Assembly: GCA_947164795.1 (NCBI GenBank)
Contig: CAMUXV010000002.1
Span: 156 to 64,155, forward strand
Reading direction: 5' to 3'
Source: an uncultured Bacillales bacterium
GTDB taxonomy: Bacteria; Bacillota_I; Bacilli_A; RF39; UBA660
DNA: 64,000 nucleotides
Positions 25,421-57,297 of this stretch are shown here, in pieces. Both the position numbers and the translations under genes were made by a program. The notes beneath the pieces were generated by a model. That model saw nothing but the letters and a program-made list of their open reading frames with translations. It was not told where the DNA came from and did no database searches. Each line of letters begins with the position of its first letter. Position 1 is the first letter of the stretch.

Positions 25421-27586
25421 GTGATTCTAGTGAGTGTAAATACTATTAAATTAACAATCGATGATTTAATAAATAAATTTAAAACTTATAATAATAATAA
25501 AAAAGATATAGAGTTAATAAGAAAAGCATATGAATATGCCGAAAAGAAACATTTTGGACAAAAGCGTATATCCGGAGACGATTATATTCTTCATCCACTT
25601 AATGTAGCATTAATACTTACTGAAGTATCTGCTGATGCGCCATGCATGGCAGCAGCTCTTCTTCATGATACAATAGAAGACTCTGATGCTACTAAAGAGG
25701 AAATAGAAAAATTATTTGGTAGTGAAGTAGCTTTATTAGTAGATGGAGTAACCAAAATAAATAAAATTAATTTTATATCAGATTCAGAAGCATCAGCAGC
25801 ATATCAAAGAAAAATACTAGTTGGTCTTTCTGAAGATGTAAGAGTAATAATAATAAAACTAGCGGATCGTCTTCATAATATGAGAACAATTAATGTACTA
25901 TCTGAAGAAAAGCAAAAAAGAAAAGCAAAAGAAACACTAGAAATATTAACTCCCGTAGCTCATAGATTAGGTATCTATAAAATAAAAAGTGAATTAGAAG
26001 ACTTATCACTTAGGTATTTAAAACCAGAAGCTTATTTTGATATCGTTGAAAAATTAAATCAGAAAAAAAGTGAAAGAGATGCCATAGTCAAAGAAATGAT
26101 GGATGAAGTATCAGAATTACTAAATGAGCACGGTATTACTCATGAAATAAAAGGAAGAAGTAAAAGTATATATAGTATTTATAATAAATTATCTAAAGGA
26201 AAATCATTTAATGATATCTATGATATACTAGCGCTTAGAGTATTTGTGGATACTGAACAAGAATGTTATTTAGCATTAGGTTTAATTCATTCCAAGTATA
26301 AACCAGTACCAAAAAGATTTAAAGATTATATAGCTATGCCAAAAACGAATTTATATCAATCACTTCATACAACAGTATTTGGTTTAGATGGAGAATTATT
26401 TGAAATACAAATAAGAACATATGAAATGGATAAAATAGCTGAATACGGTATAGCTTCTCACTGGTCTTACAAAGAAAATAAAGATGGTAATGTAAAAGAT
26501 GCCATGGAACAAAAACTCCAAATTTTTAGAAGTATCATGGAATTAAATGAAGATACTCCTAATACTGAAGAATTTATTTCATCAGTAAAAAATGATGTCT
26601 TATCCGAAGAAGTAATCTATGTATATACACCTAAAGGTGATGTAATAGAACTACCTAAAGGATCTACACCAGTAGACTTTGCTTATAAGGTACATAGCGA
26701 AGTAGGAGATCGTATGATCGGAGCTATTGTAAATGATGTCATTGTTCCATTAGATTATGAATTAAATACTGGTGATATAATCAAAATAAACACCAATAAA
26801 GCATCAAAACCAAGTAAGGATTGGTTAAACTTTGTAGTTACAACAGGAGCAAAAAATAAAATAAGAGCATATTTTAGTAAATTAGAAAAAGATGAAAATA
26901 TTGAGAAAGGCAGTGAGTTATTAGATAAGGAATTAAGAAAAGAAAATATTTCCACTGCAGAATTTTTGTCTAATAAAAACGTTGATATAATACTAAATGA
27001 ATTAAAATTAAAGGATATTGATGAACTATATATGTTTATAGCTCTTGGTAAATATACCCCACAAAGTGTTATTAAAATAACTAATAAAAAAGAGGAAATT
27101 AAAGAGGATTTAACTACTAAAATAAACGAAACTAAATATAATCAAGACAAAACAAGAAGCAATGATGTTTTAGTAGAAGGTATATCTGATATCAAAACAA
27201 CCTTAAGTGGCTGCTGCAAACCAGTTCCAGGAGACTCGATAATAGGCTACATAACAAGGGGTAGTGGTGTAACAATCCATCGGGCAACATGTAAAAACAT
27301 ATTAGATACTGATGAAAGATTAATTAATGTTAAATGGAACGAGACAAATAAAAAATATCCATCTGATATAATAGTACATACAAATACTTATGATAACTTA
27401 CTAGATATCATAACAAAAGCCACTGCTTTAAATATCATAATAGATAGTATTACCACTATTAATAAAAGCAATCATAAAGTATATCGAATGACGGTATTAG
27501 TAGAAAATAAAGAGAAATTAGATAAATTTACTAATGATTTATTAAATCTAAATTTTATTAAAAAAGTAGAAAGAGAGATAAACTAA
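25421..27586 (+). CDS. relA: Bifunctional (p)ppGpp synthetase/hydrolase RelA/SpoT homolog
   Basis: HD domain HFGQKRISGDDYILHPL...LLHDTIEDS, synthetase domain YIAMPKTNLYQSLHTTV, and TGS and ACT regions. The start may be GTG 25430. Confidence 0.95.
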   Translation: MILVSVNTIKLTIDDLINKFKTYNNNKKDIELIRKAYEYAEKKHFGQKRISGDDYILHPLNVALILTEVSADAPCMAAALLHDTIEDSDATKEEIEKLFGSEVALLVDGVTKINKINFISDSEASAAYQRKILVGLSEDVRVIIIKLADRLHNMRTINVLSEEKQKRKAKETLEILTPVAHRLGIYKIKSELEDLSLRYLKPEAYFDIVEKLNQKKSERDAIVKEMMDEVSELLNEHGITHEIKGRSKSIYSIYNKLSKGKSFNDIYDILALRVFVDTEQECYLALGLIHSKYKPVPKRFKDYIAMPKTNLYQSLHTTVFGLDGELFEIQIRTYEMDKIAEYGIASHWSYKENKDGNVKDAMEQKLQIFRSIMELNEDTPNTEEFISSVKNDVLSEEVIYVYTPKGDVIELPKGSTPVDFAYKVHSEVGDRMIGAIVNDVIVPLDYELNTGDIIKINTNKASKPSKDWLNFVVTTGAKNKIRAYFSKLEKDENIEKGSELLDKELRKENISTAEFLSNKNVDIILNELKLKDIDELYMFIALGKYTPQSVIKITNKKEEIKEDLTTKINETKYNQDKTRSNDVLVEGISDIKTTLSGCCKPVPGDSIIGYITRGSGVTIHRATCKNILDTDERLINVKWNETNKKYPSDIIVHTNTYDNLLDIITKATALNIIIDSITTINKSNHKVYRMTVLVENKEKLDKFTNDLLNLNFIKKVEREIN

Positions 27587-28023
27587 TGAAAGTATTAGTC
27601 CAAAGAGTATTAGAAGCTAAAGTAGAAGTAGATAAAAGAATAGTAGGCTCGATTAATAAAGGCCTACTTCTCTTTGTAGGATTTACTCATACAGATACCT
27701 CTAAAGAAATAGATTACTTAGTAAATAAAGTAATAAATTTAAGAATATTTGATGATGAAAATGGTGTGATGAATAGAAGTATTATCGATATTAATGGTAG
27801 TATTTTATCTATTAGTCAGTTTACTTTATATGCTGATTCTTCTAAAGGTAACAGACCATCATATATAAATGCTATGCCGGGAGATAAATCAATCAAACTA
27901 TATGAAGAATTTAACACTAAGTTAAAAGAAAAAAATATTCATATAGAGACAGGTATCTTTGGAGCAGATATGAAAGTATCTCTAATTAATGATGGACCTA
28001 TTACAATAATGTTAGAGAAGTAA
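27586..28023 (+). CDS. dtd: D-aminoacyl-tRNA deacylase
   Basis: MKVLVQRV...SQFTLYAD...NRPS...GADMKVSLINDGPITI is a canonical Dtd. Confidence 0.95.
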   Translation: MKVLVQRVLEAKVEVDKRIVGSINKGLLLFVGFTHTDTSKEIDYLVNKVINLRIFDDENGVMNRSIIDINGSILSISQFTLYADSSKGNRPSYINAMPGDKSIKLYEEFNTKLKEKNIHIETGIFGADMKVSLINDGPITIMLEK

Positions 28024-28228
28024 TTAAAAATAATACATAAACTGTCAAAATTTGTCTAACACTTTAAAATTCTAGAATAACTTTTTTATTATAAGTTGTC
28101 AAAGATTTTTTAATAACTAAATAATATAATTATGTCAAATAAAATCTAAATATTAGAACATACTAATAAAAGTATTACAAAGAAAGAATTACTTTGAATG
28201 AAATTAATAAAAAAATAAAGTATTCTAA

Positions 28229-28257
28229 TTGACACAAATACTTATAAATTATATAAT
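28229..28257 (+). promoter_or_regulatory. Sigma-A-type promoter of the T-box leader
   Basis: TTGACA (28229-28234), 17 nt, TATAAT (28252-28257). Confidence 0.6.
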
Positions 28258-28263
28258 ATTTAT

Positions 28264-28430
28264 GTACGAAAAAGAATTCTATAACTATTAAGTGACAAAT
28301 AGTAATAAATTAGAACGGTTAAGTACCGATAAATACTTACTCAAGAGCACGTTAAGTGAAATAAGGTGGCACCGCGGGAAATAGTCTCGTCCTTATATAT
28401 TTCTTTAATGTGCTTTTATTTATAGAAAGA
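28264..28430 (+). promoter_or_regulatory. T-box riboswitch leader upstream of aspS-asnS
   Basis: T-box sequence AAGGTGGCACCGCG (28363-28376). A textbook antiterminator can be drawn: A1 ATAAGG/CCTTAT (28361-66 / 28391-96), 7-nt bulge TGGCACC, A2 GCGGGA/TCTCGT, loop AATAG. Located directly 5' of aminoacyl-tRNA synthetase genes. Confidence 0.75.
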
Positions 28431-28440
28431 AGGAATAAAA

Positions 28441-29730
28441 ATGAAAAGAACACTATTAAAAGATTTAATTGAAAATGAAGAAACTAAAATATCAGGTTTT
28501 ATTGAAAGAATAAGAGATACTAAATATATGCTATTTGTAATAGTAAAAGATAGAACAGGATTTATTCAAGTATCCCTTGATAAGAATATTAATGCTGATT
28601 TAATTAAGAAATTAGAAAATGTAATTGCGGGTTCAGTTATAGAGTTTACTGGTAAAATGGTGCTAAGTGAATATGTAAAACAAGGCGGAAGAGAATTTTT
28701 ACCTACAGAATTAAAAGTACTTTCAAATGCAGAACCTTCCCCATTAGAAGAAACTGCTAATATTGATACTAGATTAGATTACAGGTGGATAGACTTACGT
28801 ACTGATAAAAATCAGTTAATGTTAAATGTGCAATCTACTTTAGTACAAGGAATGAGAGATTATCTTTATAAAGAAGATTTTACAGAAATACATACACCAA
28901 AATTAATAAGTACTGCATCAGAATCAGGATCATCAGTATTTGAAGTACAATACTTTGACAGAAAGGCATATTTAGCACAAAGCCCTCAATTCTATAAACA
29001 GATGGCAATTGCTTCTGGACTAGAAAGAATATTTGAAGTAGCTCCTGCTTTTAGAGCAGAAAATTCTAATACTAATAGACATACTACAGAATTCACTTCA
29101 TTTGACTTAGAATTTGCTTATATTGATTCATATGAAGATGTAATGGACATGGAAGAAGATTTAATAATTGCAGGATTAACTCTAGTAAAAGAAAAGTATG
29201 GAGATATAATTAAAGAAGTATTTGATAAAGAAGTAATAATTCCTACTAAACCATTCCCAAGAATTAAATTGCAAGATTTATATAAAGAACTAGAAAAGAA
29301 TTACGGATATAAAATACCAGAATTTGATGTAGGAGATATGAATGCCGAAGCAGAAGGATTAGCATATAAATATGCTATGGAAAAATATGGACATGAATTC
29401 ATCTTTATAACAGATTTTGCAAAGACTAAGAGAGCCTTTTATCATATGAGAAAAGATGATGTTCCACAAGGATATGACCTTATATGGAGAGGAACAGAAA
29501 TAACTACTGGTGCACAAAGAGAACATAGATATGATATATTAAAAGCGCAATGCGACGAAAAAGGATTAGGAAAAGATGTAGAATTCTATTTGCAGTTCTT
29601 TAAGTATGGATGTCCTCCTCATGGTGGTTTTGCTATTGGTGTTGATAGATTAACAATGCTTCTTCTTGGAATTCCATCACTAAAAGAGGAAATGTTTATA
29701 TTCCGTGGTCCAAATAGATTAGAACCATAA
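28441..29730 (+). CDS. aspS: Aspartyl-tRNA synthetase, short archaeal/type-2 form (429 aa)
   Basis: Class IIb motifs FRAENSNTNRHTTEFTSFDLEFAYI and PPHGGFAIGVDRLTMLLLG...FRGPNRLEP. Length and C-terminus fit type-2 AspRS rather than the ~590-aa bacterial form. Confidence 0.8.
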   Translation: MKRTLLKDLIENEETKISGFIERIRDTKYMLFVIVKDRTGFIQVSLDKNINADLIKKLENVIAGSVIEFTGKMVLSEYVKQGGREFLPTELKVLSNAEPSPLEETANIDTRLDYRWIDLRTDKNQLMLNVQSTLVQGMRDYLYKEDFTEIHTPKLISTASESGSSVFEVQYFDRKAYLAQSPQFYKQMAIASGLERIFEVAPAFRAENSNTNRHTTEFTSFDLEFAYIDSYEDVMDMEEDLIIAGLTLVKEKYGDIIKEVFDKEVIIPTKPFPRIKLQDLYKELEKNYGYKIPEFDVGDMNAEAEGLAYKYAMEKYGHEFIFITDFAKTKRAFYHMRKDDVPQGYDLIWRGTEITTGAQREHRYDILKAQCDEKGLGKDVEFYLQFFKYGCPPHGGFAIGVDRLTMLLLGIPSLKEEMFIFRGPNRLEP

Positions 29731-29744
29731 CAAAGATAGAAAGG

Positions 29745-31133
29745 ATGATAAAAATGTATTTAAATGAATTATATAAAGAACCTAAAAAATATTTAGGAAA
29801 AGAAATAACAATAAAAGGCTGGATTAGAAGTCAAAGAAAACAAAAAGATTTTGGATTTATTGATTTTTCTGATGGAACATGTTTTAAACATATCCAAGTA
29901 ATATATGATAATACATTAAGTAATTATAATGAAGTAGATAGTTTTAGATTTGGATCTGCTATTGAAGTAGAGGGCCTTTTTATAGAATCTCAGGGTCAAG
30001 GACAAGATTATGAATTAAAAGCTAATACTATTAAGCTACTAGGTGATGTAACAGAAGATTATCCATTACAACCTAAAGGAAGACCAACGAGAGAATTTTT
30101 AAGAGATATAGCTTATCTAAGACCTAGAACAAATTTATTTCAAGCAGTATTTAGAATAAGAAGTATTGCAGCTCATGCTATACATACTTATTTTCAAGAT
30201 AATGGATATATTTATGTTCATACACCACTTTTAACTACTGCTGACTGTGAAGGATCAGATCAAATGTTTAAAGTAACTACTTTAGACATGGACAACTTGC
30301 CTATAGAAGATGGTAAATGTAATTATAAAGAAGATTTATTTGGTAAAAAAACATATATAACTGGCAGTGGTCAATTACATGGAGAAACATTTGCCATGGC
30401 ATTTAATAAGATATATACTTTTGGTCCAACATTTAGAACTGAAAAATCAAATACTAAGACACATGCTAATGAATTTTGGATGATTGAGCCAGAGATAGCT
30501 TTCTGTGACATTAATGATTTAATGAATATTGAGGAAGATATGCTTAAATTTATTGTTAAATATGTCTTAGATAAATGCCCAGATGAAATAAACTTTTTAA
30601 ATAATTTTGTCGATAATACTTTAAAAGAAAAACTAGAAAAACTAGTGTCATCTAAATTTAATCGTGTTACTCATAAAGAAGCAATAGATATATTAAATAA
30701 CGCCAATATTAAATGGGAATTTACTCCATCATATGAAGAAGATATAGCTAAAGAACACGAAAAATATCTTACAGAATATTTTAATGGTCCAGTATTTGTC
30801 TATAACTGGCCTAAAGATATAAAGGCATGGTACATGAAATTAAATGAAGATGGAAAGACAGTAGCTGCAGTTGACTTAGAAGTTCCTGGAGCAGGAGAAT
30901 TAATGGGTGGTAGTCAAAGAGAAACTGATATTGAATTATTAAGAAATAGATGCAAAGAACTTGGTGTAGATACTGAGCCTATTGAATGGTTCTTAAATTT
31001 AAGAAGATTTGGTGGTTGCTATCATTCAGGATTTGGTATGGGATTTGAAAGATTATTAATCTATTTAACAGGAATAGATAATATTAGAGATGTAATACCA
31101 TTTCCAAGAACGCCAGGATCATGTGAATATTAA
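29745..31133 (+). CDS. asnS: Asparaginyl-tRNA synthetase
   Basis: FRTEKSNTKTHANEFWMIEPEIAF, GGSQRE, HSGFGMGFERLLIYLTG...FPRTPG are typical AsnRS motifs. Confidence 0.9.
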   Translation: MIKMYLNELYKEPKKYLGKEITIKGWIRSQRKQKDFGFIDFSDGTCFKHIQVIYDNTLSNYNEVDSFRFGSAIEVEGLFIESQGQGQDYELKANTIKLLGDVTEDYPLQPKGRPTREFLRDIAYLRPRTNLFQAVFRIRSIAAHAIHTYFQDNGYIYVHTPLLTTADCEGSDQMFKVTTLDMDNLPIEDGKCNYKEDLFGKKTYITGSGQLHGETFAMAFNKIYTFGPTFRTEKSNTKTHANEFWMIEPEIAFCDINDLMNIEEDMLKFIVKYVLDKCPDEINFLNNFVDNTLKEKLEKLVSSKFNRVTHKEAIDILNNANIKWEFTPSYEEDIAKEHEKYLTEYFNGPVFVYNWPKDIKAWYMKLNEDGKTVAAVDLEVPGAGELMGGSQRETDIELLRNRCKELGVDTEPIEWFLNLRRFGGCYHSGFGMGFERLLIYLTGIDNIRDVIPFPRTPGSCEY

Positions 31134-31151
31134 AATGTAGTAGGGGGTATT

Positions 31152-32567
31152 ATGAATTTAAAAGATAGTATACATTATATATTAAATAAAATAAATAATA
31201 ATGAAGAATTAGCCGTAATTTTTAAATTATATAAAGAAGAACAAGGCTCTATTGCCTATATACCAATAGGCATTATATCAGGTAAATTAGATACCGACAA
31301 TTTAACTTTTACAAGTAATAATAAAACATTCAATCACCTAATAAAAGGACCTAAAGATTATGGCTTTGCCTTCTCTAAAACATTAACTGATACAGTTAGA
31401 AATAATAAGTTTATACCAAAAATAATACAAGAAAGACAAATGTTAAAATCACTTAGTAGCTTCTATTACATATATGCTAAAGATCAGCATAAAAATCCTG
31501 TAGTAGGAGTTCAATCTATTGATGATGCATCAAATATAGATATTCTATATGAAGAAGAATTATTAAATTATTATTTAAGGAAATTTCCATCAGCTAAAGA
31601 AATAATAGAATTATTAAAAAGAGCTAGTGGGCAGTTAAATTTAGATATAAAAGAAATATCAAAATCATTAGAAGAAAACTATAGTAACAAAGAACAATCT
31701 AAACAAATATTAACTGCCATATGGAAACACTATCATAGTGATAGTTCCTATAATATTTTTATTAATGGTAGTGAAATAACTCCAAAAAGAGAGATAATAA
31801 AAAGTATTTGTGATAAAGCCAATATTCCATACTACTATTTTAGTACAGTAGAAAAATATGAAATTACTGATATTGATACTATGTTAAAAAAACTAATAAA
31901 ACAAAGTGATAATAATCTTGAACTAGCAGAAAACACCATTCTAGTAATAGATAATATTGATAAACTAGCATTAACGGATTTAAGCTCTGATTCATTTGCC
32001 AATGCTCAATTAAATTTAGCTAAAATACTAAGAGGGGAAACAATTAAATTAAGATATAATAAACATAAAAAGGTACAATTTGATACCAGTAAAATGATGA
32101 TAATAGGTATGGGTAATTATGAAGATGAAGAGCTAAAAGACATAAAGATAAATGGTTTTACTTCAAAAAAAGACACAAGAAAAGATAGTAAAGAAAAATA
32201 TAAACCTGGAATGCTAGAAGGCTTATTTGATAACTTTAAAATGATTATACAAATGGATAACCCTAATTTACAAGATTATCAAAATTATCTTACTAATAGA
32301 GAAAACGCTGGCATTATAAATAATATAAATTTCTTTAATAATCTTAATATAAAATTAACTATTTCTGATGATGTAATAAATAAATTAGCAAATTATGCAT
32401 ATGAAAATAAAATGTCTTTATCAGATTTAAGAGAAACTATTGAAAATATGCTATCTATACCTTCGTTTGAAATAGCTAAAAACCCTAATATGTATGATGA
32501 ACTAGTAGTTACTTCTGATACAATTCTTGATAATAAGAAATACATCCTTAAAAGGAAGAAAAACTAA
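31152..32567 (+). CDS. ClpX-derived AAA+-like protein with degenerate catalytic motifs and a novel ~165-aa N-terminal domain (471 aa)
   Basis: Collinear with ClpX from aa ~175: EQSKQILTAIWKHYH / NIFINGSEITPKREIIKSICDKANIPYYYFS / ILVIDNIDKLA / ANAQLNLAKILRGETIKL / VQFDTSKMMIIGMGNY / FNNLNIKLTISDDVINKLANYAYENKMSLSDLRETIENML. Walker A, Walker B, pore loop and R-finger positions are all substituted. GGGGGT RBS 18 nt after asnS. Confidence 0.6.
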   Translation: MNLKDSIHYILNKINNNEELAVIFKLYKEEQGSIAYIPIGIISGKLDTDNLTFTSNNKTFNHLIKGPKDYGFAFSKTLTDTVRNNKFIPKIIQERQMLKSLSSFYYIYAKDQHKNPVVGVQSIDDASNIDILYEEELLNYYLRKFPSAKEIIELLKRASGQLNLDIKEISKSLEENYSNKEQSKQILTAIWKHYHSDSSYNIFINGSEITPKREIIKSICDKANIPYYYFSTVEKYEITDIDTMLKKLIKQSDNNLELAENTILVIDNIDKLALTDLSSDSFANAQLNLAKILRGETIKLRYNKHKKVQFDTSKMMIIGMGNYEDEELKDIKINGFTSKKDTRKDSKEKYKPGMLEGLFDNFKMIIQMDNPNLQDYQNYLTNRENAGIINNINFFNNLNIKLTISDDVINKLANYAYENKMSLSDLRETIENMLSIPSFEIAKNPNMYDELVVTSDTILDNKKYILKRKKN

Positions 32568-32663
32568 TATATATACCATACTATAAAGAAGATATAAGAC
32601 AGCTTTCAGATATTAGGTTACAAGAAACTAGAAATATAAAAATGTAAAGTTATGTCAAAATGC

Positions 32664-32692
32664 TTGAAGAATTAATACTACTATGATATAAT
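32664..32692 (+). promoter_or_regulatory. Strong sigma-A promoter driving the 6S-like RNA
   Basis: TTGAAG (32664-32669), 17 nt, extended -10 TGATATAAT (32684-32692). Confidence 0.6.
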
Positions 32693-32698
32693 TAAAAT

Positions 32699-32881
32699 AC
32701 CTAGAGGATACGACATCTTTTGTATAAAACCGACTAAAGATATTAAACGGGGAACTAATATGATTTATGTGTTGAAAGCCTATCTATGAATAGGAATCCT
32801 GATTAAATTATTGTGTTCACCCACCTGTGACATTCGCCGCGGGTTTTATCTTACAGATTCGGTCCATCTGGGTCTTTTTTT
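32699..32881 (+). ncRNA. ssrS: Candidate 6S RNA (~183 nt rod-shaped RNA with a central bubble)
   Basis: No ORF. The 5' end ACCTAGAGGAT pairs with the 3' end GTCCATCTGGGT. ATAAAACC (32724-31) pairs with GGTTTTAT (32842-49). There is a ~17/18-nt asymmetric internal bubble. GGGGAAC (32749-55) pairs with GTTCACCC (32815-22). Apical hairpin CCTAT-CTATGA-ATAGG, then a terminal T7 run. Lies between the aaRS genes and tcdA, where I recall B. subtilis bsrA (6S-1) sits (aspS-yrvM). Confidence 0.6.
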
Positions 32882-32931
32882 ATTGATTAATATTATAAAA
32901 TTTAGTACAATAATTATGGAGTGTGATTTAT

Positions 32932-33450
32932 ATGAAAGAAATAAAAACAACTACTGAATATACTGATGATAAAATAAAAAAATTCCTAAAAATATATTAT
33001 TTTGATAAAATTAAAAATAAGAGAATAGTATTAAATATCTTAATACTAGTGATTATATTTAATTTCTTTACTAAATATGATAATGAAAGAAGTACTATTG
33101 ATATAATTGCCTTTGTATTTGCTTTAATTGGATTATTAGAATTAAATACATCTATCTTACCTAGATTTAATTATAATAAGTTAAAAAGAAAGAAAGATAA
33201 TATTATTGGTACTAAGGTTTTTTATACTTTAAAAAAGAATAATTTTAAATTAACTACTGAAAAAGATGAATATATAGATTATGATAAACTAAAAAAAGTA
33301 ATTGAAACAGATACAGATTATTATTTATATATTAATAGTTCTAGAAGTTTAATACTTGGAAAAGATAATTTATCAGAAGAAGATATTGATATTCTTACTA
33401 ATATATTTAAAGAAAAAGTATCCACTTATATAAGAAAGAAAAATGTTTGA
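32932..33450 (+). CDS. Hypothetical membrane protein (two TM helices; YcxB-like architecture)
   Basis: ATG at 32932 follows GGAG. Hydrophobic segments IVLNILILVIIFNFF and IIAFVFALIGLLEL. Confidence 0.5.
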   Translation: MKEIKTTTEYTDDKIKKFLKIYYFDKIKNKRIVLNILILVIIFNFFTKYDNERSTIDIIAFVFALIGLLELNTSILPRFNYNKLKRKKDNIIGTKVFYTLKKNNFKLTTEKDEYIDYDKLKKVIETDTDYYLYINSSRSLILGKDNLSEEDIDILTNIFKEKVSTYIRKKNV

Positions 33451-34120
33451 TCGTACTATAAAACTAATAGGTAATGATAATTATTTAAAACTTAAAAACT
33501 CTAATATATTAATAATAGGTTTAGGTGGAGTAGGTGGATATGCTCTAGAAGCACTAATAAGAAGCGGTATTGAAAATATAACAATTGTAGATTATGATAA
33601 AATAGATATAACTAACTTAAATAGGCAAATAATCAGTAATAGTTATAATATAGGTAACTTAAAGACTGAAGAATGGAAAAAAAGAATATTATCCATTAAT
33701 AGTAATGTAAAAGTAAAAGTTATCAATGAAAAAATAGAAGAAAGAAATATAGATAAATTATTTGAAGAACAATATGATTTTATAATAGATGCCTGTGATA
33801 CAATGATAGTAAAGAAATTACTAATAAAAAATTGTTGTGAAAAAAATATCAATTTAATTACTGTATGTGGGATGGGAAGAAAATTAAATCCTAAAATGAT
33901 AGAAGTAATTCCTTTATCAAAGACTAGTTATGACCCAATAGCTAAAACGCTTAGAAAATATGTTAAAGATGAAAAAATTAAAGGTAAAATAATGTGTATC
34001 TGTTCTAAAGAAGAACCTATTATTAGTGATAATAGTATTATTGCTTCAATGACTATTGTGCCTAGTACTGCTGGTATACTAGCAGCAGATTATGTTATTA
34101 AAAGCATTATTAATATGTAA
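33443..34120 (+). CDS. tcdA: tRNA threonylcarbamoyladenosine dehydratase (ThiF/E1-like; TcdA/YrvM)
   Basis: Rossmann motif IIGLGGVGGYALEALIRSGIENITIVDYDKIDITNLNRQ. 225 aa. Confidence 0.8.
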   Translation: MFDRTIKLIGNDNYLKLKNSNILIIGLGGVGGYALEALIRSGIENITIVDYDKIDITNLNRQIISNSYNIGNLKTEEWKKRILSINSNVKVKVINEKIEERNIDKLFEEQYDFIIDACDTMIVKKLLIKNCCEKNINLITVCGMGRKLNPKMIEVIPLSKTSYDPIAKTLRKYVKDEKIKGKIMCICSKEEPIISDNSIIASMTIVPSTAGILAADYVIKSIINM

Positions 34121-35439: not shown

Positions 35440-35462
35440 GAAAGAGAGTAGGAGTGATAATT

Positions 35463-35636
35463 ATGAAAGTAAAGTTAAAAGAAGGAAACGCATATATTGA
35501 AGTTGATACTGAATTGTCAGATGAAATAATAGATACTTTTGAAAAAGAAGTAAATGTAAAAAGAGATGAAGATTTAGAAAAAACAATAGAAATAAAATTA
35601 AATACGGAGAAAAATAATGAGACAGATGGAAATTGA
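35463..35636 (+). CDS. Small acidic hypothetical protein (57 aa)
   Basis: ATG sits 9 nt after GTAGGAG. Overlaps the next ORF by 20 nt. E/D-rich. Confidence 0.4.
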   Translation: MKVKLKEGNAYIEVDTELSDEIIDTFEKEVNVKRDEDLEKTIEIKLNTEKNNETDGN

Positions 35637-36972
35637 AAAAGTATTAAAAGATTTATATGAAAGTAACATTAATTTGAAACAATATGGAACGAAACTAACT
35701 GAAAAAATGATTTATCATTATTTGACAAAATTAGGTTTGCCAGAAAAAGAAAGAAATGAAAGAATAAATAACAATTTCCCCGATTGGATTGAAACCTTTA
35801 AAAATTTTCCTAATATAGAAGTATTTAATTCTCGTGATTGGAAATATTTTTGTCAATTTATAAATGGACATGTCGAACCTGAATGCATTAAAATGTATGT
35901 ATCCCTAGATAGTTCTCATATTAATAAAGGAGCAAAAATTATATTTAGTTTTTTAGCAAATAATAATATTTCCCATCTTTCAAAAATCGGAAGTGATGTC
36001 AGGACAGATGATATTGTAATAAGATTAACTAATGAAGATGATGCAAGAAAATTAAGTGATTTTATTTCTAATAGCAAATATATTCAAGATGGCATGCAGA
36101 AAGTAAATCCATTTTGTTTTGAACATAACGGTATAGGATATGCTTATGATGGCCATTTATCATATAATTCTTGTGTTTCTAAAATAATTGCAGATTATAT
36201 AAATAGAATGTATGAACTTGGAAAAGATAAAAATGAAATTAATATAAATAGTTTTTATCAATTTGTTGATGCATATTCACAAATTCCAGAAAAGCAAAAC
36301 GAACTTCCTTTTGTAAATGGAGACTATGAAAAAATAACCGAAGCTTCACTAGTGTTAGAACTTCTAAAAATTTCTCTAACTTCAAATAATATCAATGACT
36401 TCTTTAAATTTTATAATTATACTGTTAATAATAAAATGCAAAACAAATATAGAGCTAATTCTGAGGACAAAGAAGAATTATTTAAAGAGGCAATATTGAC
36501 AACGATGAAAAAATATTCACGAGGGTTCGATAAAAATTATCCAGAAAGATCGGGATATGATTTTTTGAATGCTTTTCTTGATGGAAATATCGATGGTATA
36601 ACTAGAGATAATAATTTAAGAAATAGAATAAGAGAAAATCTTTCATTAGAAGACACTTTATTAATAGCAAAAAAAAGCGAAATACCTGGTAAATCAAATA
36701 GAGATATTGTAATGAATTATGTCAAAACTGTTATGTTAAATGAAATAGTTAAATGTTCAGAAGAAAAATTTCCGGGATATGGAATTGCACAATTGCAAGA
36801 ATATTTAATAACAGGTCAATTAAAATACATTACCGAAAGTTTAGGCAATGCTAGAACAATTGCAAAAAATTTAAATCCAACAGAAATTTATAATTTGTTT
36901 GCTGAACTTGGTGTTAGTGATATATATCAATATATTGATTATTTTTATAAAAATAATAATAAAGTTAAATAA
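35617..36972 (+). CDS. Hypothetical protein (451 aa). Central region is reminiscent of the HopA1 / LanKC-N-terminal-like family.
   Basis: Pattern IKMYVSLDSS...AKIIFSFLANNNISHLSKIGSDVRTDDIVIRL...VNPFCFEHNGIGYAYDGHLSYNS resembles, from memory, the K-x-Y-[VI]...K....R.D..V.[YL] signature of that family. Unverified. Confidence 0.55.
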   Translation: MRQMEIEKVLKDLYESNINLKQYGTKLTEKMIYHYLTKLGLPEKERNERINNNFPDWIETFKNFPNIEVFNSRDWKYFCQFINGHVEPECIKMYVSLDSSHINKGAKIIFSFLANNNISHLSKIGSDVRTDDIVIRLTNEDDARKLSDFISNSKYIQDGMQKVNPFCFEHNGIGYAYDGHLSYNSCVSKIIADYINRMYELGKDKNEININSFYQFVDAYSQIPEKQNELPFVNGDYEKITEASLVLELLKISLTSNNINDFFKFYNYTVNNKMQNKYRANSEDKEELFKEAILTTMKKYSRGFDKNYPERSGYDFLNAFLDGNIDGITRDNNLRNRIRENLSLEDTLLIAKKSEIPGKSNRDIVMNYVKTVMLNEIVKCSEEKFPGYGIAQLQEYLITGQLKYITESLGNARTIAKNLNPTEIYNLFAELGVSDIYQYIDYFYKNNNKVK

Positions 36973-41917: not shown

Positions 41918-42550
41918 TTAAATAAACAATTTTATAACTAATTTCATCATTGAGGGAAGTAAAAAGGCTTCTGAAAGAGATGAAACAGTAATAATACTAA
42001 AGGATATTAATAGTATTAATAAATATTTTTTTATATAACTTTTTAAAATAATATTATTAGCCTTATTAAAAATGCTTTTAAACAGCATAATAGAAAAAGT
42101 AAATGAATAAACACTAATTATTATTATCATTAAAAAATTAATTATAGTAGTGGGAAACACATAAATAAATGATGAAATAATACCCTTATAACCATAAACC
42201 GCTATAAAAGAAGAAATAGTAAAACCCACTATAAAGCCTTTTAAATATGTTAAAAATATATTAAAAACAATTCCAATAATTGAAGCACCTAATAACCATA
42301 TAAGTATAATGTATAAAGAATTTTCAATAAAAGCATTTTTAAGTGCATCAATATTATTTATTTTATTTGTATTAATATTAGACATAAAACTAGTAATTTT
42401 AGATGAAACTAATTCTTTGTCGCTGCTATTTAAAATAATTAAAAAAATAGTACCAGATATTATACCTAACAATATTATAAATATCACAAATAAATTAATC
42501 TTTTTATTAGGAAGAACTATGCTTAGAAAATTATTAAATCTATTTTTCAT
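41918..42550 (-). CDS. spoIIM: Stage II sporulation protein M-like membrane protein
   Basis: 210-aa polytopic protein collinear with SpoIIM: LKGFIVGFTISSF (Bacillus LKGVVVGFTVGFL) and SEAFLLPSMMKLVI (Bacillus IEAYLSPVLMEKVV). Confidence 0.7.
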   Translation of the reverse strand: MKNRFNNFLSIVLPNKKINLFVIFIILLGIISGTIFLIILNSSDKELVSSKITSFMSNINTNKINNIDALKNAFIENSLYIILIWLLGASIIGIVFNIFLTYLKGFIVGFTISSFIAVYGYKGIISSFIYVFPTTIINFLMIIIISVYSFTFSIMLFKSIFNKANNIILKSYIKKYLLILLISFSIITVSSLSEAFLLPSMMKLVIKLFI

Positions 42551-46723: not shown

Positions 46724-46746
46724 AAAAAGAGTAGCTAAGCTACTCT
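46722..46746 (-). terminator. Rho-independent terminator of glmS
   Basis: Minus strand AGAGTAGC-TTA-GCTACTCT followed by TTTTTTT, which runs into the next -35. The stem includes the glmS stop codon. Confidence 0.7.
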
Positions 46747-48503
46747 ACTGTTACTGATTTAGCTAAATTTCTAGGTTTATCAATATCACAACCTTTTAAT
46801 TTAGCAACATTATATGCAAGCATTTGCATTGGAACTATTACTAATAAAGGATTTAATATTTCATCATAGTCATCTATTTCAATAGAATAATTATAAAAAT
46901 CCTCTTTTAAATTAGTAATAGCAATTATTTCTGCTCCACGAGAAGAAACCTCTTTTAAATTACTTATAGTTTTATCACTAATAGTTTTATCTGTTACAAT
47001 AGATATTACACCAAAATCCTTATCAATTAGTGAAATACTACCATGTTTTAATTCTCCTGCTTGAAAAGCTTCACTATGAATATAAGATATTTCTTTTAAT
47101 TTTAAGCTTCCCTCCATAGCTAAATAATAATCAATTCCTCGTCCTAAATAAAATACATGCTCTTTTTTAGCTACTATTTTAGCAATACTCAAATAATCAT
47201 ATTCATTAATATACTTAGTAATTAAATTAGGAAGTAGTTTTAAATCATCTATAGCTTTTCCTTCATACTTTGTATCTTTTATAGCCATTAATAATAATAC
47301 TATTATTTGTGATAAATATGCTTTAGTAGTTGCCACTGCTATTTCAATACCAGCTTCAGTATATACTACATATTTAGCTTCTCTTGCTATTGAAGAATCT
47401 TTTCTATTAACAATAGCAAGTGTATCAATATTATTCTCCTTTGCTAGTTTTAATGCTGCTAATGTATCAGCAGTCTCTCCTGACTGAGATATTAATAGTA
47501 CTAAAGTATCTTTATCAAAGAAATTCTTTTGATATCTATATTCTGATGCGTAGTAGACATTAACTTTAATATTCTTATATTGTTCTATATAATATTTACC
47601 TATTTGTCCTGCAAAAGAAGCGGAACCACAAGCAACTATATCAATACATTTATATTTATTCAAATCAAAAATATCCTTTACATTACCATTATCAGTATAT
47701 AAATTTAAATGTTTTTTTACAATATCAGCTTCCTCGTTTATTTCTTTTAGCATAAAATGATCATAACCATTTTTACTAATAGCTTCTTTGTCAAAATTGA
47801 ATTCTTTTATTTCTTTCTTTATTTCATTTAAATTTCTATCATAAATAGATACTTTATTACTAGTCACTTTAACAATATCATAATTATCTAACAATATATA
47901 TTTATTAGTTACATGAAGTACCGCTGGTATATCACTAGCTAAAATATTTTCCTTCTCACCTATTCCAACAATTAGAGGGCTATCCTTTCTAATACCATAT
48001 ATTATATCAGGTTCATCCTCACATATAATATTAAAAGCATAACTACCTTTCAATACATTAGTAAGCTCTGATAAACTTCCTAACATATTACCTGTTCTAT
48101 TATATATATAATCTAAATAAGCAGAGGCAACTTCTGTATCTGTATCGCTTTTAAAAATATAACCTTTACTTATTAATTCTTTCTTTAATTCATTATAATT
48201 CTCAATAATCCCATTATGAACAAGAGTAATCTTTCCTTGTTTATGAGGATGAGCATTAGTATCATTAGCTACTCCATGAGTTGCCCATCTTGTATGGGAT
48301 ATTGCAATATCAATATCTTCCTTATAATCTAAACATTTATCTAGATTAACTATAGGTCCTTCTTTTTTTATTATGTTTATTTTATTATTCTTCATATATG
48401 CAATACCTGAAGAATCATAACCACGATATTCCAAGGATTTAAGACCTGTCATAACCTTAGATATACCATTTTCTTTTCCTGCATAACCTACTATGCCACA
48501 CAT
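46740..48503 (-). CDS. glmS: Glutamine--fructose-6-phosphate aminotransferase
   Basis: The protein must begin Met-Cys (MCGIVGYAG...), so the start is set at 48503, after ATAGGAG. The track start at 48530 adds 9 non-conserved residues. Two SIS domains and a C-terminal ...KPRNLAKSVTVE. Confidence 0.95.
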   Translation of the reverse strand: MCGIVGYAGKENGISKVMTGLKSLEYRGYDSSGIAYMKNNKINIIKKEGPIVNLDKCLDYKEDIDIAISHTRWATHGVANDTNAHPHKQGKITLVHNGIIENYNELKKELISKGYIFKSDTDTEVASAYLDYIYNRTGNMLGSLSELTNVLKGSYAFNIICEDEPDIIYGIRKDSPLIVGIGEKENILASDIPAVLHVTNKYILLDNYDIVKVTSNKVSIYDRNLNEIKKEIKEFNFDKEAISKNGYDHFMLKEINEEADIVKKHLNLYTDNGNVKDIFDLNKYKCIDIVACGSASFAGQIGKYYIEQYKNIKVNVYYASEYRYQKNFFDKDTLVLLISQSGETADTLAALKLAKENNIDTLAIVNRKDSSIAREAKYVVYTEAGIEIAVATTKAYLSQIIVLLLMAIKDTKYEGKAIDDLKLLPNLITKYINEYDYLSIAKIVAKKEHVFYLGRGIDYYLAMEGSLKLKEISYIHSEAFQAGELKHGSISLIDKDFGVISIVTDKTISDKTISNLKEVSSRGAEIIAITNLKEDFYNYSIEIDDYDEILNPLLVIVPMQMLAYNVAKLKGCDIDKPRNLAKSVTVE

Positions 48504-48544
48504 ATTTACTCCTATCTTATATTCAGTCATTATATTGTTACAAT

Positions 48545-48655
48545 TTTAATTTTGCTTTTTGATAATAACCTAATGAGCATATAAACCCAAAGCAGCATCC
48601 GCCGAATATTCGATAAACCACTTTCCTCGTTAACTATTTCTAGTCTGGCGCTAAG
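48545..48655 (-). ncRNA. glmS ribozyme (GlcN6P-dependent self-cleaving riboswitch)
   Basis: Minus strand reads A|GCGCCAGACTAGAAATAGTTAACGAGGAAAGTGGTTTATCGAATATTCGGCGGATGCTGC..., matching the conserved core (AGCGCCAGA, ACGAGGA, CGAAnnTTCGGCGGATGC). Lies immediately 5' of glmS. Confidence 0.85.
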
Positions 48656-48823
48656 TTAATAATTATCCTCCCATCTATTACTAACTTTACTATAGTATAT
48701 CAAAATATAATATAAATGTAAACTGAATATAATGATTTTCCATATTTTATCTTTCATACTTATAATTAAAAAGTAAATAATAATAATGTAGTCTGTGATA
48801 TAAGTAAAAGGAGATGTTATTTT

Positions 48824-49816
48824 ATGTTTTTTAAAAAAATAAAAAACAAATTTTTAATGCTTCTTCTACTACTTATTATGCCCAGCATTGCATTAGCTTA
48901 TTCAGATTATGTAATAGCAGGAGGAGAAAATATTGGTATATCCCTTCACTCAAACGGAGTAATAATTGTTGGATCTTATGAAGTTGAAGGAAATAATCCT
49001 GCTAGAGAAAGTGGATTAAATAATGGCGATAGAATAATCAAAGTTAATGATACAGAAACTCCAAGTATAGAAAAAATGTTAGATATAATTGAAAATTTAA
49101 ATGCAAAAGATAATATTAAAATAGCATATATTAGAGGTAATAAGGAATATACTACTAATCTTAGTTTAAAGAAAGATACAAATAATGTTTACAAAACAGG
49201 ATTATATGTTAAAGATAGTATAACAGGAGTTGGCACATTAACATTTATTGATCCAAACACAAAGAAATTTGGAGCATTAGGTCATGAAATAATTGAAAAA
49301 AATACTGGGCAAAAACTTGAAATAAAAGATGGAAGTATCTACTCATCTACTGTAACAGGAATAATTAAAAGCACAATTGGAACTCCTGGAGAAAAAAATG
49401 CTAAATATGATAGTACTAATATATTTGGAAATGTAAAAGAAAATACTACAAGAGGTATCTTTGGTGAATATACAAAAGAAATACCTGATAAAAAACTATA
49501 TAAAGTAGCAAGCCCTAATGAAACAAATGAAGGAAATGCTACTATTCTAACTGTAATAGAAGATGATAATGTCGAAGAATTTAAAATAAATATATTAAAA
49601 GTAAGTTTAAATACTGATTCTTCTAAAAACATATTATTTGAAGTAACAGATAATATTCTTCTTAAAAAAACTGGTGGTATAGTTCAGGGTATGAGTGGTA
49701 GTCCAATTATTCAAAATGATAAAATAATAGGAGCAGTAACCCATGTAGTAGTTGATGATCCCACTAAAGGATATGGTACTTTTATTACTAAAATGTTAGA
49801 AGAAGCAGAAAATTAA
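48824..49816 (+). CDS. spoIVB: SpoIVB signalling serine peptidase (S55) with a PDZ domain
   Basis: Signal/TM head, PDZ NPARESGLNNGDRIIKVND, catalytic region GALGHEI...GIVQGMSGSPII. Confidence 0.9.
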   Translation: MFFKKIKNKFLMLLLLLIMPSIALAYSDYVIAGGENIGISLHSNGVIIVGSYEVEGNNPARESGLNNGDRIIKVNDTETPSIEKMLDIIENLNAKDNIKIAYIRGNKEYTTNLSLKKDTNNVYKTGLYVKDSITGVGTLTFIDPNTKKFGALGHEIIEKNTGQKLEIKDGSIYSSTVTGIIKSTIGTPGEKNAKYDSTNIFGNVKENTTRGIFGEYTKEIPDKKLYKVASPNETNEGNATILTVIEDDNVEEFKINILKVSLNTDSSKNILFEVTDNILLKKTGGIVQGMSGSPIIQNDKIIGAVTHVVVDDPTKGYGTFITKMLEEAEN

Positions 49817-57153: not shown

Positions 57154-57231
57154 CTTATACACTCCTATTACAATGATAACATAATGACATTTAATAATCA
57201 ATTCATTTTAACTATCAGTTTACAAAATATT

Positions 57232-57272: not shown

Positions 57273-57297
57273 ATATATGAAAGAAAGGGTGATATAT

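Follow-up and report, generated by a model that had tools for sequence, protein, structure and literature searches.

The window analysed here is a 64,000-nt stretch of DNA from an uncultured Bacillales bacterium. Around its aspS gene, the order of genes and features is relA-dtd-[T-box]-aspS-...-6S RNA-...-tcdA-rarA, and a ClpX-like open reading frame (ORF) lies between asnS and the 6S RNA gene (Table 1). This order resembles that of the hisS-aspS region of B. subtilis, where a T-box-controlled hisS-aspS operon is followed by 6S-1 RNA (bsrA), yrvM (tcdA) and yrvN (rarA). However, the window operon differs from the Bacillus arrangement in having an extra, non-synthetase gene, the ClpX-like ATPase homologue that is the subject of this analysis.

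Table 1 Features of the aspS operon and of the ClpX-like gene in the window.
Feature	Position	Strand	Remarks
Sigma-70-type promoter of the aspS operon, TTGACA-17-TATAAT	28229..28257	+	directly 5' of the T-box-like leader
Compact T-box-like leader	28253..28397	+	Rfam T-box RF00230, 50.9 bits, E 2.6e-09
Candidate Asp specifier, GAC	28294-28296	+	inside a short hairpin loop of the leader
T-box core, AGTGAAATAAGGTGGCACCGCGG	28355-28377	+	in the aspS leader
aspS, archaeal-type non-discriminating aspartate--tRNA(Asn) ligase	28441..29730	+	429 aa; NCBIfam NF003483, 445 bits (cut-off 353)
asnS, asparagine--tRNA ligase	29745..31133	+	462 aa; NCBIfam NF003037, 589 bits (cut-off 414)
Ribosome-binding site of the ClpX-like ORF, AGGGGG	31142..31147	+	within the 18-nt asnS-ORF spacer
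ClpX-like gene, putative pseudo-ATPase	31152..32567	+	471 aa; ATG start; subject of this analysis
Family-specific N-terminal alpha/beta domain, aa 1-~160	31152..31631	+	in place of the ClpX zinc-binding domain
Degenerate Walker A, NGSEITPKR, aa 205-213	31764..31790	+	GSTGVGKT in alignments to ClpX and intact family members
Degenerate pore-1 loop, KYEI, aa 235-238	31854..31865	+	GYVG in ClpX
Degenerate Walker B, LVIDNID, aa 264-270	31941..31961	+	aligned to IIDEID; catalytic Glu replaced by Asn
Remnant of the ClpP-docking IGF loop, N-G-F, aa 334-336	32151..32159	+	first hydrophobic residue lost
Former arginine-finger segment, GLFDNFK, aa 356-362	32217..32237	+	aligned to ELIGRFP
Former sensor-2 segment, SLSDLR, aa 422-427	32415..32432	+	aligned to GARSL/GARGLR; MSLSDL aligned to FGARSL
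Promoter-like site, TTGAAG-17-TATAAT, extended TG	32664..32692	+	immediately 5' of the 6S RNA
6S RNA (ssrS)	32695..32878	+	Rfam RF00013, 71.6 bits (gathering score 46.4)

The aspS operon and its leader

The promoter listed ahead of the leader is the only site within 27500-33600 that matches the consensus at 12/12 positions. The initial annotation had described the aspS-asnS pair as T-box-controlled. The score of the window leader is under the Rfam gathering score of 93 bits because most of Stem I is missing, with 4 nt standing in for 74 Stem I model positions in the Rfam alignment. Equivalent leaders are present in loci L009, L011, L013 and L014, and across loci such leaders are ~140 nt long and score 37-53 bits. 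Although these matches are sub-threshold, the T-box assignment holds up, as neither AGTGAAATAAGGTGGCACCGCGG nor GTGAC(A) varies in alignment A3 or among 22/22 leaders located 5' of aspS. The conserved T-box sequence includes the UGGNACC bulge, and the candidate specifier GAC is an Asp codon followed by a purine. In the consensus leader fold, a long hairpin carries the T-box element at its tip, and a U-rich tract comes after it. The operon is similar to the T-box synthetase operons of Firmicutes in pairing a T-box core with a specifier codon that matches the regulated synthetase, but it differs from them in its short, largely Stem I-less and low-scoring leader. Since the leaders fall under the Rfam threshold, regulation of this kind is invisible to standard annotation. 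With a compact Asp-specific T-box leading the operon, expression of the ClpX-like gene is most likely tied to uncharged tRNA-Asp.

The aspS product matches the tRNA-synt_2 and OB-fold families of Pfam. A ribosome-binding site in the 18 nt that follow asnS, and a spacer free of terminators, had also been described for the ClpX-like ORF; the site is indeed present, and a terminator scan found no terminator-like site between asnS and the ORF. From this spacing and the lack of a predicted terminator, we infer that the ORF is co-transcribed with asnS. The 6S RNA begins 127 nt past the stop codon of the ORF and ends in a terminator-like hairpin that carries a T-run (32855-32875); within the ORF-to-6S RNA interval, the scan found no terminator-like site. 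A 6S RNA lies 3' of the ClpX-like gene in L001, L002, L004, L006, L008, L009, L011 and L013, the match in L013 being slightly under the gathering score.

Sequence and predicted fold of the ClpX-like protein

The ORF was originally described as ClpX-derived, with its zinc-binding N-domain replaced and five motifs substituted, and each of these points is borne out by sequence and modelled structure. In a phmmer search of PDB sequences, the best 15 matches are all ClpX chains (top match 1um8, E 3.1e-08) and every significant match is to ClpX, and the NCBIfam ClpX model PRK05342 matches the protein at E 3.8e-14, a significant relationship even though its 52.4 bits lie under the cut-off of 359. The ClpX equivalog TIGR00382 is likewise under its cut-off (37.1 vs 370.75 bits). 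Collinearity with ClpX extends from about aa 168 to the C-terminus. When the AlphaFold2 model of the protein (pLDDT 83, pTM 0.72) was compared with the PDB by Foldseek, 50/50 of the matches listed were ClpX (best E 5.7e-18; TM 0.53-0.71 normalised to target), and the model shares the large and small AAA+ fold of ClpX (TM ~0.6 normalised to ClpX). By these sequence and model comparisons, the ORF is a well-conserved relative of ClpX with a predicted ClpX-type AAA+ fold. The other Clp protein encoded in the window is a ClpB without N-domain.

Unlike ClpX, which begins with a C4 zinc-binding domain, the window protein has no cysteine cluster in residues 1-160, and these residues are modelled as a unique alpha/beta domain (pLDDT 85, pTM 0.78). 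Foldseek searches with this N-domain returned nothing significant among PDB structures (best E 0.056, TM ~0.2, mostly proteasome subunits) or in BFVD, and neither an N-domain profile run against PDB sequences nor a comparison of 20 N-domains with Pfam at E <= 1 gave an assignment. A homologue search with an alignment of distant N-domains (A4) gave no matches. An HslV/Ntn-like reading of the domain was dropped, given meaningless TM-scores and the absence of an N-terminal Thr.

In the AAA+ module, HMMER alignments to ClpX and alignments with intact family members place all five substitutions at the residues originally given, so that every ATPase and pore motif of ClpX is altered in the window copy. 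The Walker A pattern GxxGxGK[ST] has lost its second and third Gly and its Ser/Thr, with K212 kept; Walker B reads DN or DD in the clade to which the window protein belongs (hereafter the degenerate clade); a 4-residue deletion adjoins the pore-1 loop; and both the arginine finger and the sensor-2 arginine are absent. Judging from these alignments, no canonical ATPase or translocation motif survives, and the protein is probably catalytically dead.

At the position of the ClpP-docking IGF loop, the window protein, like ClpX, has a flexible loop (aa 329-350, modelled as disordered) in which G-F is retained. G335 and F336 are invariant in a 14-sequence alignment (A1), and GF is near-universal among the 84 full-length family members tabulated for their motifs, with few exceptions such as GY and GI/GV. 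Intact members carry an [IVL]GF loop, whereas the degenerate clade has N/S/G/R/K/A-GF; with the first hydrophobic residue lost, docking to ClpP by this clade may be weakened or gone.

The retained residues also bear on whether the word 'dead' is right, since the protein could still be an NTPase or a nucleotide-binding switch that uses a non-canonical site. Alignment A1 shows no variation at K212 of Walker A or D267 of Walker B. Of all segments in the clade, the remodelled P-loop, NGS[ED]I[TS]PK[KR][ED], is conserved best (0.90 vs a mean of 0.76), a pattern that suggests selection on a pocket rather than drift. With these features, the protein could still bind a ligand or nucleotide at a non-canonical site. 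However, five independent elements changed together (P-loop, Walker B Glu, arginine finger, sensor-2 Arg and pore loop), the P-loop went from GxxGxGK[ST] to GxxIxPKK/R, and the Pfam AAA match is under its gathering score (20.3 vs 21.2 bits). To our knowledge, no AAA+ protein hydrolyses ATP without both the Walker A Ser/Thr and the catalytic Glu. Retained NTPase or switch activity is thus considered quite improbable.

An unnamed family with intact and degenerate members

On sequence grounds, the window protein falls in the degenerate branch of a large family of ClpX-like proteins, as yet unnamed, from uncultured gut Bacilli. An N-domain profile, in which the window sequence was itself included, matches 119 clusters at 50% identity, whose full-length members are mostly 440-540 aa long and share one architecture: a unique N-domain of ~150 aa and a ClpX-type large/small AAA+ module with an [IVL]GF loop. 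At 90% identity, the family comprises at least 279 clusters (E <= 1e-40 to one intact member). Its carriers, all of them uncultured, are metagenome-assembled genomes labelled Bacilli, Bacillales or 'Tenericutes'. The degenerate form is found in GCA_016648615.1, CAMODE01, CAMVMQ01 and a 690-kb scaffold of ERZ28653906, and the intact form in UQSR01, CAKOOV01 and OJJV01000001.1 (702 kb). Most members retain GxxGVGKT, GYVG, DEID, [IVL]GF, GR and GAR, and the window protein aligns with intact members over its full length (96-100% coverage). On the family tree, no fewer than three or four branches show motif loss.

Intact members score 187-222 bits on the ClpX equivalog, far under the cut-off of 359, which indicates that the family is a distinct paralogue family. 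The proposed descent from ClpX stands, but in a modified form: the window protein derives not directly from the housekeeping ClpX but from this family of intact ClpX-like paralogues, in which the new N-domain was already present. After ClpX, HslU (ClpY) gives the strongest NCBIfam match to intact members, at 91-131 bits. The family resembles HslU in having no zinc-binding domain, but the I-domain insertion of HslU is absent from it and no hslV-like gene is nearby. Gene context also sets the family apart from ClpX, as its genes are placed after aspS and under a T-box, whereas canonical clpX is usually found in a tig-clpP-clpX context (PMC10149685). ClpI, considered as a precedent (PMC10149685), was rejected because ClpI proteins are double-ring ClpC-like proteins. 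In 292 kb covering the window and loci of the family, tblastn searches for ClpP (query from B. subtilis) and for ClpX and HslV (queries from E. coli) matched only the ClpX-like genes and found no ClpP, canonical ClpX or HslV.

The initial annotation knew of no prior description. The only database name found for the family is the generic 'AAA family ATPase [Bacilli bacterium]', and literature searches (ClpX paralogue/pseudo-ATPase; RF39/Tenericutes ClpX-like; aspS+ClpX+T-box) found no description of it. Although ClpX ranks among the protein-unfolding motors that are understood best, no account was found of a ClpX-type protein that is maintained in nature with all of its motifs dead.

Loss of every motif might mean that the gene is a decaying relic, a ClpX-like gene that lost its use, for instance when ClpP disappeared, and is heading for deletion. 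The gene does evolve faster than its housekeeping neighbours (51-78% amino acid identity vs 90-97% for asnS), and the repeated motif loss in the family would fit such a fate. However, 16/16 full-length cluster representatives of the clade carry intact ORFs of 470-483 aa, undisrupted across a synonymous divergence of ~0.6-1.4. Selection on the gene is purifying, with dN/dS (NG86) of 0.11-0.28 among five orthologues, alongside 0.03-0.09 for asnS, 0.10-0.18 for tcdA and xerD, and 0.20 for ycxB; all three domains of the protein are constrained (omega 0.19-0.32). The AlphaFold2 model is confident, and the substituted motifs are themselves conserved. Decay was rejected on dN/dS and ORF integrity; it is already largely refuted and, in our estimation, extremely improbable. 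The claim of a maintained ORF is therefore upheld, and the combination of lost catalytic residues, an intact ORF and purifying selection in several lineages is that of a pseudoenzyme. In one locus (L039), aspS, the ClpX-like gene, ycxB and tcdA are all fragmented, and this was taken as an error-rich assembly rather than a pseudogene.

Intact and degenerate forms are also found at the same locus in close relatives. Between L001 (degenerate) and L036 (intact), AsnRS is 98% identical (asnS dS 0.38) and TcdA 95% identical (tcdA dS 0.17), whereas the ClpX-like proteins are only 35% identical (dN 0.66, dS 1.12), and nucleotide identity, initially ~93%, has fallen to background by 30-60 nt into the gene. 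Acceleration in situ was rejected as the source of this low identity, since the dS of the gene is 3-6 times that of its flanks (0.17-0.38) and the boundary is abrupt. Such abrupt homology breakpoints imply cassette replacement. This comparison of sequences indicates that the two forms are interchangeable cassettes at one locus in close relatives. The closest relative of the window protein (P0002, L020), 98% identical, differs only in a 23-nt mosaic patch at codons 284-309, and the differing sites are too few, and all in one patch, for a meaningful dN/dS. Because they are swapped by recombination in near-identical genomes, the intact and degenerate forms look like alternative functional states and not like stages of decay.

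Dimorphism and fast evolution might instead reflect conflict with phages or other mobile elements, in which the degenerate form, as a variant of a targeted unfoldase, would act as a decoy or confer immunity. Both the abrupt replacement between near-identical flanks and the 23-nt patch are consistent with such a conflict, as are the translationally coupled, variable, unannotated ORFs downstream of the gene (118-120 aa in L008, L009 and L023; 451 aa in L036). However, PADLOC returned only generic P-loop matches for intact forms and no defence-system match for the degenerate form or its neighbours, and no relatives of the family were found among IMG/VR viral contigs. The locus is a core housekeeping operon and not a defence island, and evolution within the clade is purifying. 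We regard an origin in such conflict as very improbable.

Linkage to aspS and possible function

The recurrence beside aspS or asnS that the initial annotation had raised was indeed observed: one or the other lies immediately upstream of the family gene in 35/36 loci, with a spacing of 13-30 nt. The linkage characterises the family as a whole and extends to its active members, and it holds for both bacterial-type (580 aa) and archaeal-type (429 aa) AspRS despite differing downstream genes.

Linkage of this consistency could mean that the family, including its degenerate form, acts on the machinery of Asp/Asn-tRNA charging or tRNA modification. Its members might serve AspRS/AsnRS or a tRNA-modifying enzyme as chaperones, assembly factors or regulators, and the degenerate form would be a pure scaffold of such a complex and more than a co-regulated passenger. 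Beyond the adjacency itself, which persists in lineages whose other neighbours differ, the surrounding genes are suggestive. In the lone exception among the 36 loci, the gene upstream is tgt, encoding queuine tRNA-ribosyltransferase, which modifies tRNA-Asp, Asn, His and Tyr; a PP-loop (TilS/TtcA-type) ATPase gene follows the family gene in L014, L018 and L019; and tcdA, for tRNA ct6A37 synthase, is found two genes downstream in the group of the window. However, the linkage survives both the exchange of bacterial-type for structurally different archaeal-type AspRS and the insertion of asnS, a pattern explained better by shared T-box regulation than by a specific interface between proteins, and no tRNA- or synthetase-binding domain is detectable in the family with Pfam. 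Moreover, relA-dtd-...-aspS-6S-tcdA-rarA is an ancient housekeeping cluster in Bacilli, as seen in B. subtilis, so that tRNA-related neighbours are expected by default. A role in the charging or modification machinery therefore seems unlikely, if still worth weighing.

We consider it fairly probable instead that the ORF encodes a folded, selectively maintained pseudo-ATPase, a degenerate form of the ClpX-like family that acts by binding. The window protein would no longer hydrolyse ATP or translocate substrate and would act through binding alone. Its N-domain and ring surfaces may hold the same partner or partners that the intact homologues process, and the degenerate form would then be a trap, adaptor or competitor that needs no ATP; it may still contact ClpP or mix with active ClpX-type rings.

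Catalytically inactive paralogues of AAA+ and Clp proteins are known, among them ClpR of plastids and cyanobacteria, plastid FtsHi, the clamp-loader subunits delta and delta', and the Torsin activators LAP1 and LULL1. The pseudo-ATPase proposed here is similar to these proteins in that the fold is kept under purifying selection after catalytic loss, with a presumed role in binding or scaffolding. It differs from these examples, which are stable paralogues beside active subunits in a defined hetero-complex, in that the degenerate form takes the orthologous locus of the active form. Unlike LAP1 and LULL1, the window protein is also without an arginine finger.

A wider proposal, which we put forward tentatively and hold to be doubtful as a whole, is that the family is an unfoldase family wired to tRNA-Asp charging via a minimal T-box and maintained in two ancient, recombining allelic states, one an active motor and the other an ATP-independent trap or regulator of the same client or clients. 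If this is true, one housekeeping operon could answer a shortage of Asp-tRNA with proteolysis in one state and with sequestration in the other.

Active and degenerate versions with a common N-domain and locus amount to a natural experiment, which could reveal what a ClpX-type ring is capable of without ATP; comparing the two could also show what the new N-domain recognises. The almost invariable coupling to aspS and to an Asp-specific T-box points to a possible, so far unexplored circuit in reduced gut Bacilli by which tRNA charging would act on protein quality control.

Kinship to ClpX and loss of the canonical motifs

The initial annotation described the ClpX-like ORF as collinear with ClpX, and three independent measures agree that the kinship is significant. 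In a phmmer search of all PDB sequences, ClpX chains were the top 15 matches of the ORF protein (best 1um8, E 3.1e-08); the NCBIfam ClpX model PRK05342 covers residues 168-468 (E 3.8e-14); and the best PDB matches of an AlphaFold2 model (pLDDT 83, pTM 0.72) in Foldseek are ClpX (top E 5.7e-18). The relationship is nonetheless remote: with 52 bits, PRK05342 stays far from its curated cut-off (359), and Pfam AAA, at 20.3 bits, falls just below its gathering score of 21.2.

Catalytic motifs were compared with those of ClpX in HMMER alignments and with those of intact relatives in a further alignment; all five substitutions originally proposed are present. Walker A reads G-S-E-I-T-P-K-R (G-S-T-G-V-G-K-T in intact relatives), the pore-1 loop KYEI (GYVG), Walker B VIDNID (IIDEID), the arginine finger GLFDNFK (ELIGRFP) and sensor-2 MSLSDL (FGARSL); the lysine of Walker A (K212) and the aspartate of Walker B (D267) are retained. 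In the ClpP-docking IGF loop, G-F does not vary across a 14-sequence alignment of dead and intact members and is present, with few exceptions, throughout the full-length members tabulated; the dead clade has N, S, G, R, K or A in place of the hydrophobic residue before it. The window protein shares the ClpX fold, but it scores below the equivalog cut-off and lacks canonical Walker A/B, GYVG, arginine finger and sensor-2, as well as the zinc-binding domain. The unrelated domain said to replace the latter is modelled confidently (pLDDT 85, pTM 0.78) and has no significant match in PDB structures, BFVD, PDB sequences or Pfam; its fold may be new.

A search of 5.8 billion proteins identified 19 close relatives (55-100% identity) with no Pfam annotation, and five relatives matching over the full length at 29-35% identity, which carry AAA_2 and ClpB_D2-small, intact catalytic motifs and the same N-terminal domain. 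With a profile of this domain only, 119 clusters were recovered from 1.84 billion cluster representatives, the full-length matches being mostly 440-540 aa with the domain at the N-terminus. Most of the 84 full-length members have GPTGVGKT, GYVG, DEIDK, [IVL]GF, GR and GARG. On the ClpX equivalog, intact members reach just 187-222 bits and therefore form a family of ClpX-like paralogues separate from ClpX proper; the window ORF belongs to a degenerate branch of this undescribed family.

With one intact member as query, at least 279 clusters at 90% identity were found (E <= 1e-40), with no source name among the matches listed. The sole name recovered for the family is 'AAA family ATPase [Bacilli bacterium]', and the MAGs that carry it bear the labels uncultured Bacillales, Bacilli or Tenericutes. 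The family is unnamed; literature searches turned up no account of it, its link to aspS or any dead ClpX, in agreement with the initial annotation. In a neighbour-joining tree the window's clade groups with several other degenerate clusters, a grouping possibly inflated by long-branch attraction, and at least three further degenerate branches are separate (clusters P0043/P0044, P0064/P0081 and P0123).

Purifying selection and allele replacement

Pseudogenised orthologues would have counted against the initial annotation; the dead clade instead retains intact ORFs of 470-483 aa in 16/16 full-length cluster representatives. Among five orthologues with DNA, NG86 dN/dS is 0.11-0.28 for the ClpX-like ORF, 0.03-0.09 for asnS, 0.10-0.18 for tcdA and xerD and 0.20 for ycxB; partial saturation of synonymous sites (dS 0.6-1.4) makes these ratios rough, yet they remain far below 1. 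The N-domain and the large and small AAA+ domains are all constrained (omega 0.19-0.32). These comparisons indicate a gene that is maintained and not decaying. The remodelled P-loop, NGS[ED]I[TS]PK[KR][ED], is the clade's most conserved stretch (0.90 against a mean of 0.76), which argues for the former nucleotide pocket being a selected new state. The same conservation is the main ground for leaving a small probability to a non-canonical ligand site in the window protein.

In two relatives' loci, L036 and L023, a metagenome scan found asnS followed by an intact-type gene, which keeps all motifs in L023 and all except the sensor-2 arginine in L036. Against L001, whose copy is dead, L036 shows 98% amino-acid identity in asnS (dS 0.38) and 95% in tcdA (dS 0.17), and 35% in the ClpX-like gene (dS 1.12, dN 0.66). 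Nucleotide identity is ~93% across asnS, the spacer and the gene's first ~30 nt, falls to background over the following 30 nt, is partly regained (77%) in the final ~140 nt and returns to 92% ahead of the 6S RNA. Acceleration of the gene in situ was considered and rejected, given the excess synonymous divergence and sharp boundaries. The same features point to replacement of a cassette by recombination; the intact and dead forms are therefore old, with exchange among close relatives.

Comparison with the closest relative, L020 (98% identical gene), revealed 23 nt differences, all in codons 284-309 (8 non-synonymous and 6 synonymous codons among 26), and none across 300 nt upstream. This patch looks like a small recombination tract in the region equivalent to ClpX RKH/pore-2. 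A conserved ORF of 118-120 aa (54-74% identity), whose start overlaps the ClpX-like gene's stop, accompanies both dead and intact forms and is replaced in L036 by a 451-aa ORF; no Pfam or PADLOC match was obtained for either, and neither follows the ClpX-like gene in the window, L002 or L020. The patch and these variable overlapping ORFs fit a recombining locus.

The aspS operon and its leader

Genes in the window run in the order secDF, relA, dtd, leader, aspS, asnS, ClpX-like ORF, 6S RNA, ycxB-like, tcdA, rarA (minus strand), xerD-like recombinase and glmM, an aspS...6S...tcdA-rarA arrangement that mirrors the B. subtilis aspS-bsrA-yrvM-yrvN region. As first noted, a ribosome-binding site precedes the ORF, which starts 18 nt past asnS, and no terminator is predicted between these genes; nor were terminator-like sites found between aspS and asnS or between the ORF and the 6S RNA, which could also be produced by read-through from the aspS operon.

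At the Rfam gathering threshold no T-box was detected in the window. The leader belongs to a compact variant (~140 nt, almost no Stem I), missed by standard annotation because it scores 37-53 bits, well under the gathering score of 93. A five-leader alignment shows no variation in GTGAC or in the core AGTGAA.TAAGGTGGCACCGCGG. In 22/22 leaders a regular-expression scan placed the core ~75 nt ahead of aspS and GTGAC no more than 110 nt upstream; one leader outside the 22 (L015) was not recovered. The candidate specifier GAC, an Asp codon, occupies the loop of a short hairpin and has A as its 3' neighbour. In the predicted fold a long hairpin carries the T-box element at its tip and a U-rich tract comes next; such nesting is unusual for a terminator/antiterminator switch. 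The proposed T-box control is supported at sequence level by the core and specifier, with the amendment that the variant is atypically compact.

Recurrence beside aspS/asnS, a check suggested in the initial annotation, holds in 35/36 loci with an identifiable upstream gene (window included): the neighbour is aspS in 25, asnS in 10 (aspS just before wherever the contig reaches) and tgt in one (L019), with spacers of ~13-30 nt. In L039 the aspS, ClpX-like, ycxB and tcdA genes are broken into many short in-frame pieces, probably by error-rich assembly rather than pseudogenisation. Linkage to aspS is a property of the whole family, kept despite differing downstream genes: the window's group has 6S RNA, ycxB and tcdA, L014 a PP-loop ATPase with ddl and ruvAB, L040 ddl and ruvAB, and L018 and L019 a PP-loop ATPase.

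It is also kept with both bacterial-type (~580 aa) and archaeal-type (429 aa) AspRS, the window's being archaeal-type and non-discriminating, and the leaders of the window and L009 are nearly identical although their aspS types differ. For these reasons we read the association as primarily regulatory, through shared control by tRNA-Asp charging, and not as a specific AspRS interaction. A direct tRNA-linked role for the family is kept alive, as a rival reading, by its tRNA-related neighbours tgt, PP-loop ATPase and tcdA. The same contrast of synthetase types at one position sets L008, L013, L018 and L036 against L001, L011, L014 and L015. Close relatives with non-orthologous aspS share nearly identical T-box leaders and asnS, and the essential aspS gene looks to have been displaced in situ.

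Positions of features in the window and in relatives' loci
Feature	Locus	Position	Strand	Remarks
Sigma-70 promoter	window	28229-28257		perfect consensus; sequence scan
T-box match	window	28253-28397		145 nt, 50.9 bits, E 2.6e-09, Rfam E-value mode; most of Stem I missing
Equivalent leader before aspS	L009	4659-4800		compact T-box variant
Equivalent leader before aspS	L011	6055-6193		compact T-box variant
Equivalent leader before aspS	L013	6503-6643		compact T-box variant
Equivalent leader before aspS	L014	6065-6201		compact T-box variant
aspS, archaeal-type	window	28441-29730		429 aa
aspS, bacterial-type	L009	4845-6587		~580 aa, GAD domain
Ribosome-binding site	window	31142-31147	+	AGGGGG, read from sequence
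ClpX-like ORF	window	31152-32567	+	ATG start, 471 aa, 18 nt past asnS stop
Patch differing from L020	window	32001-32078		codons 284-309
Interval without overlapping ORF	window	32568-32694
6S RNA	window	32695-32878		directly 3' of ORF; own promoter-like site; terminator-like hairpin 32855-32875
118-120-aa ORF	L008	9433-9795
118-120-aa ORF	L009	9415-9771
118-120-aa ORF	L023	1862-2218
451-aa ORF replacing it	L036	5526-6881		29-aa motif common to both
Fragmented genes	L039	1639-6383
60-aa ORF	window	35454-35636		overlaps next
451-aa ORF	window	35617-36972
SpoIIM	window	41918-42550	-	sporulation gene
glmS	window	46740-48530	-
glmS ribozyme	window	48516-48663	-	directly upstream of glmS
SpoIVB	window	48824-49816	+	sporulation gene
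YqfD	window	52808-54001	-	sporulation gene
Thymidylate synthase ORF	window	55987-57201	-	404 aa
ClpB-type AAA+ chaperone	window	57277-59415		712 aa

Host organism and proposed role

The organism carries SpoIIM, SpoIVB and YqfD and is therefore likely a spore-former, though relatives are labelled 'Tenericutes'; these genes are compatible with the described RF39/RFN20/ML615J-28 group of Bacilli (PMC10868615). Elsewhere in the window, a 451-aa ORF without Pfam, NCBIfam or PADLOC match is 44-45% identical to its L001 and L008 counterparts (neighbours 80-93%) and missing in L002 and L009, and appears fast-evolving and variably present. The thymidylate synthase ORF, adjoining DHFR and thymidylate-kinase-like genes, has its Pfam domain at residues 23-320 only and an unexplained ~80-aa C-terminal extension. 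A ClpB-type double-ring chaperone is without the usual N-terminal domain (NCBIfam ClpB 1137 bits, cut-off 1232, match from model position 144).

The ORF very probably encodes a genuine, motif-dead and maintained member of a new ClpX-like family. It would share a transcript with aspS-asnS, with uncharged tRNA-Asp as the inducer. The protein would be unable to hydrolyse ATP or thread substrates, and could bind clients or partners processed by intact homologues through its N-domain and ring or loop surfaces, acting as an ATP-independent trap, adaptor or competitor. Neither ClpP nor canonical ClpX was found in the 292 kb searched. We offer this overall picture as the best explanation, with fair but limited confidence; any specific binding partner would be a doubtful proposal.

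Inactive paralogues such as ClpR, FtsHi, clamp-loader delta' and LAP1/LULL1 are kept inside AAA+ or Clp assemblies, where they coexist with active subunits. They are the closest concept, but here the dead form takes the active form's place at an orthologous locus, a finding that bears on the AAA+, proteostasis and riboswitch fields.
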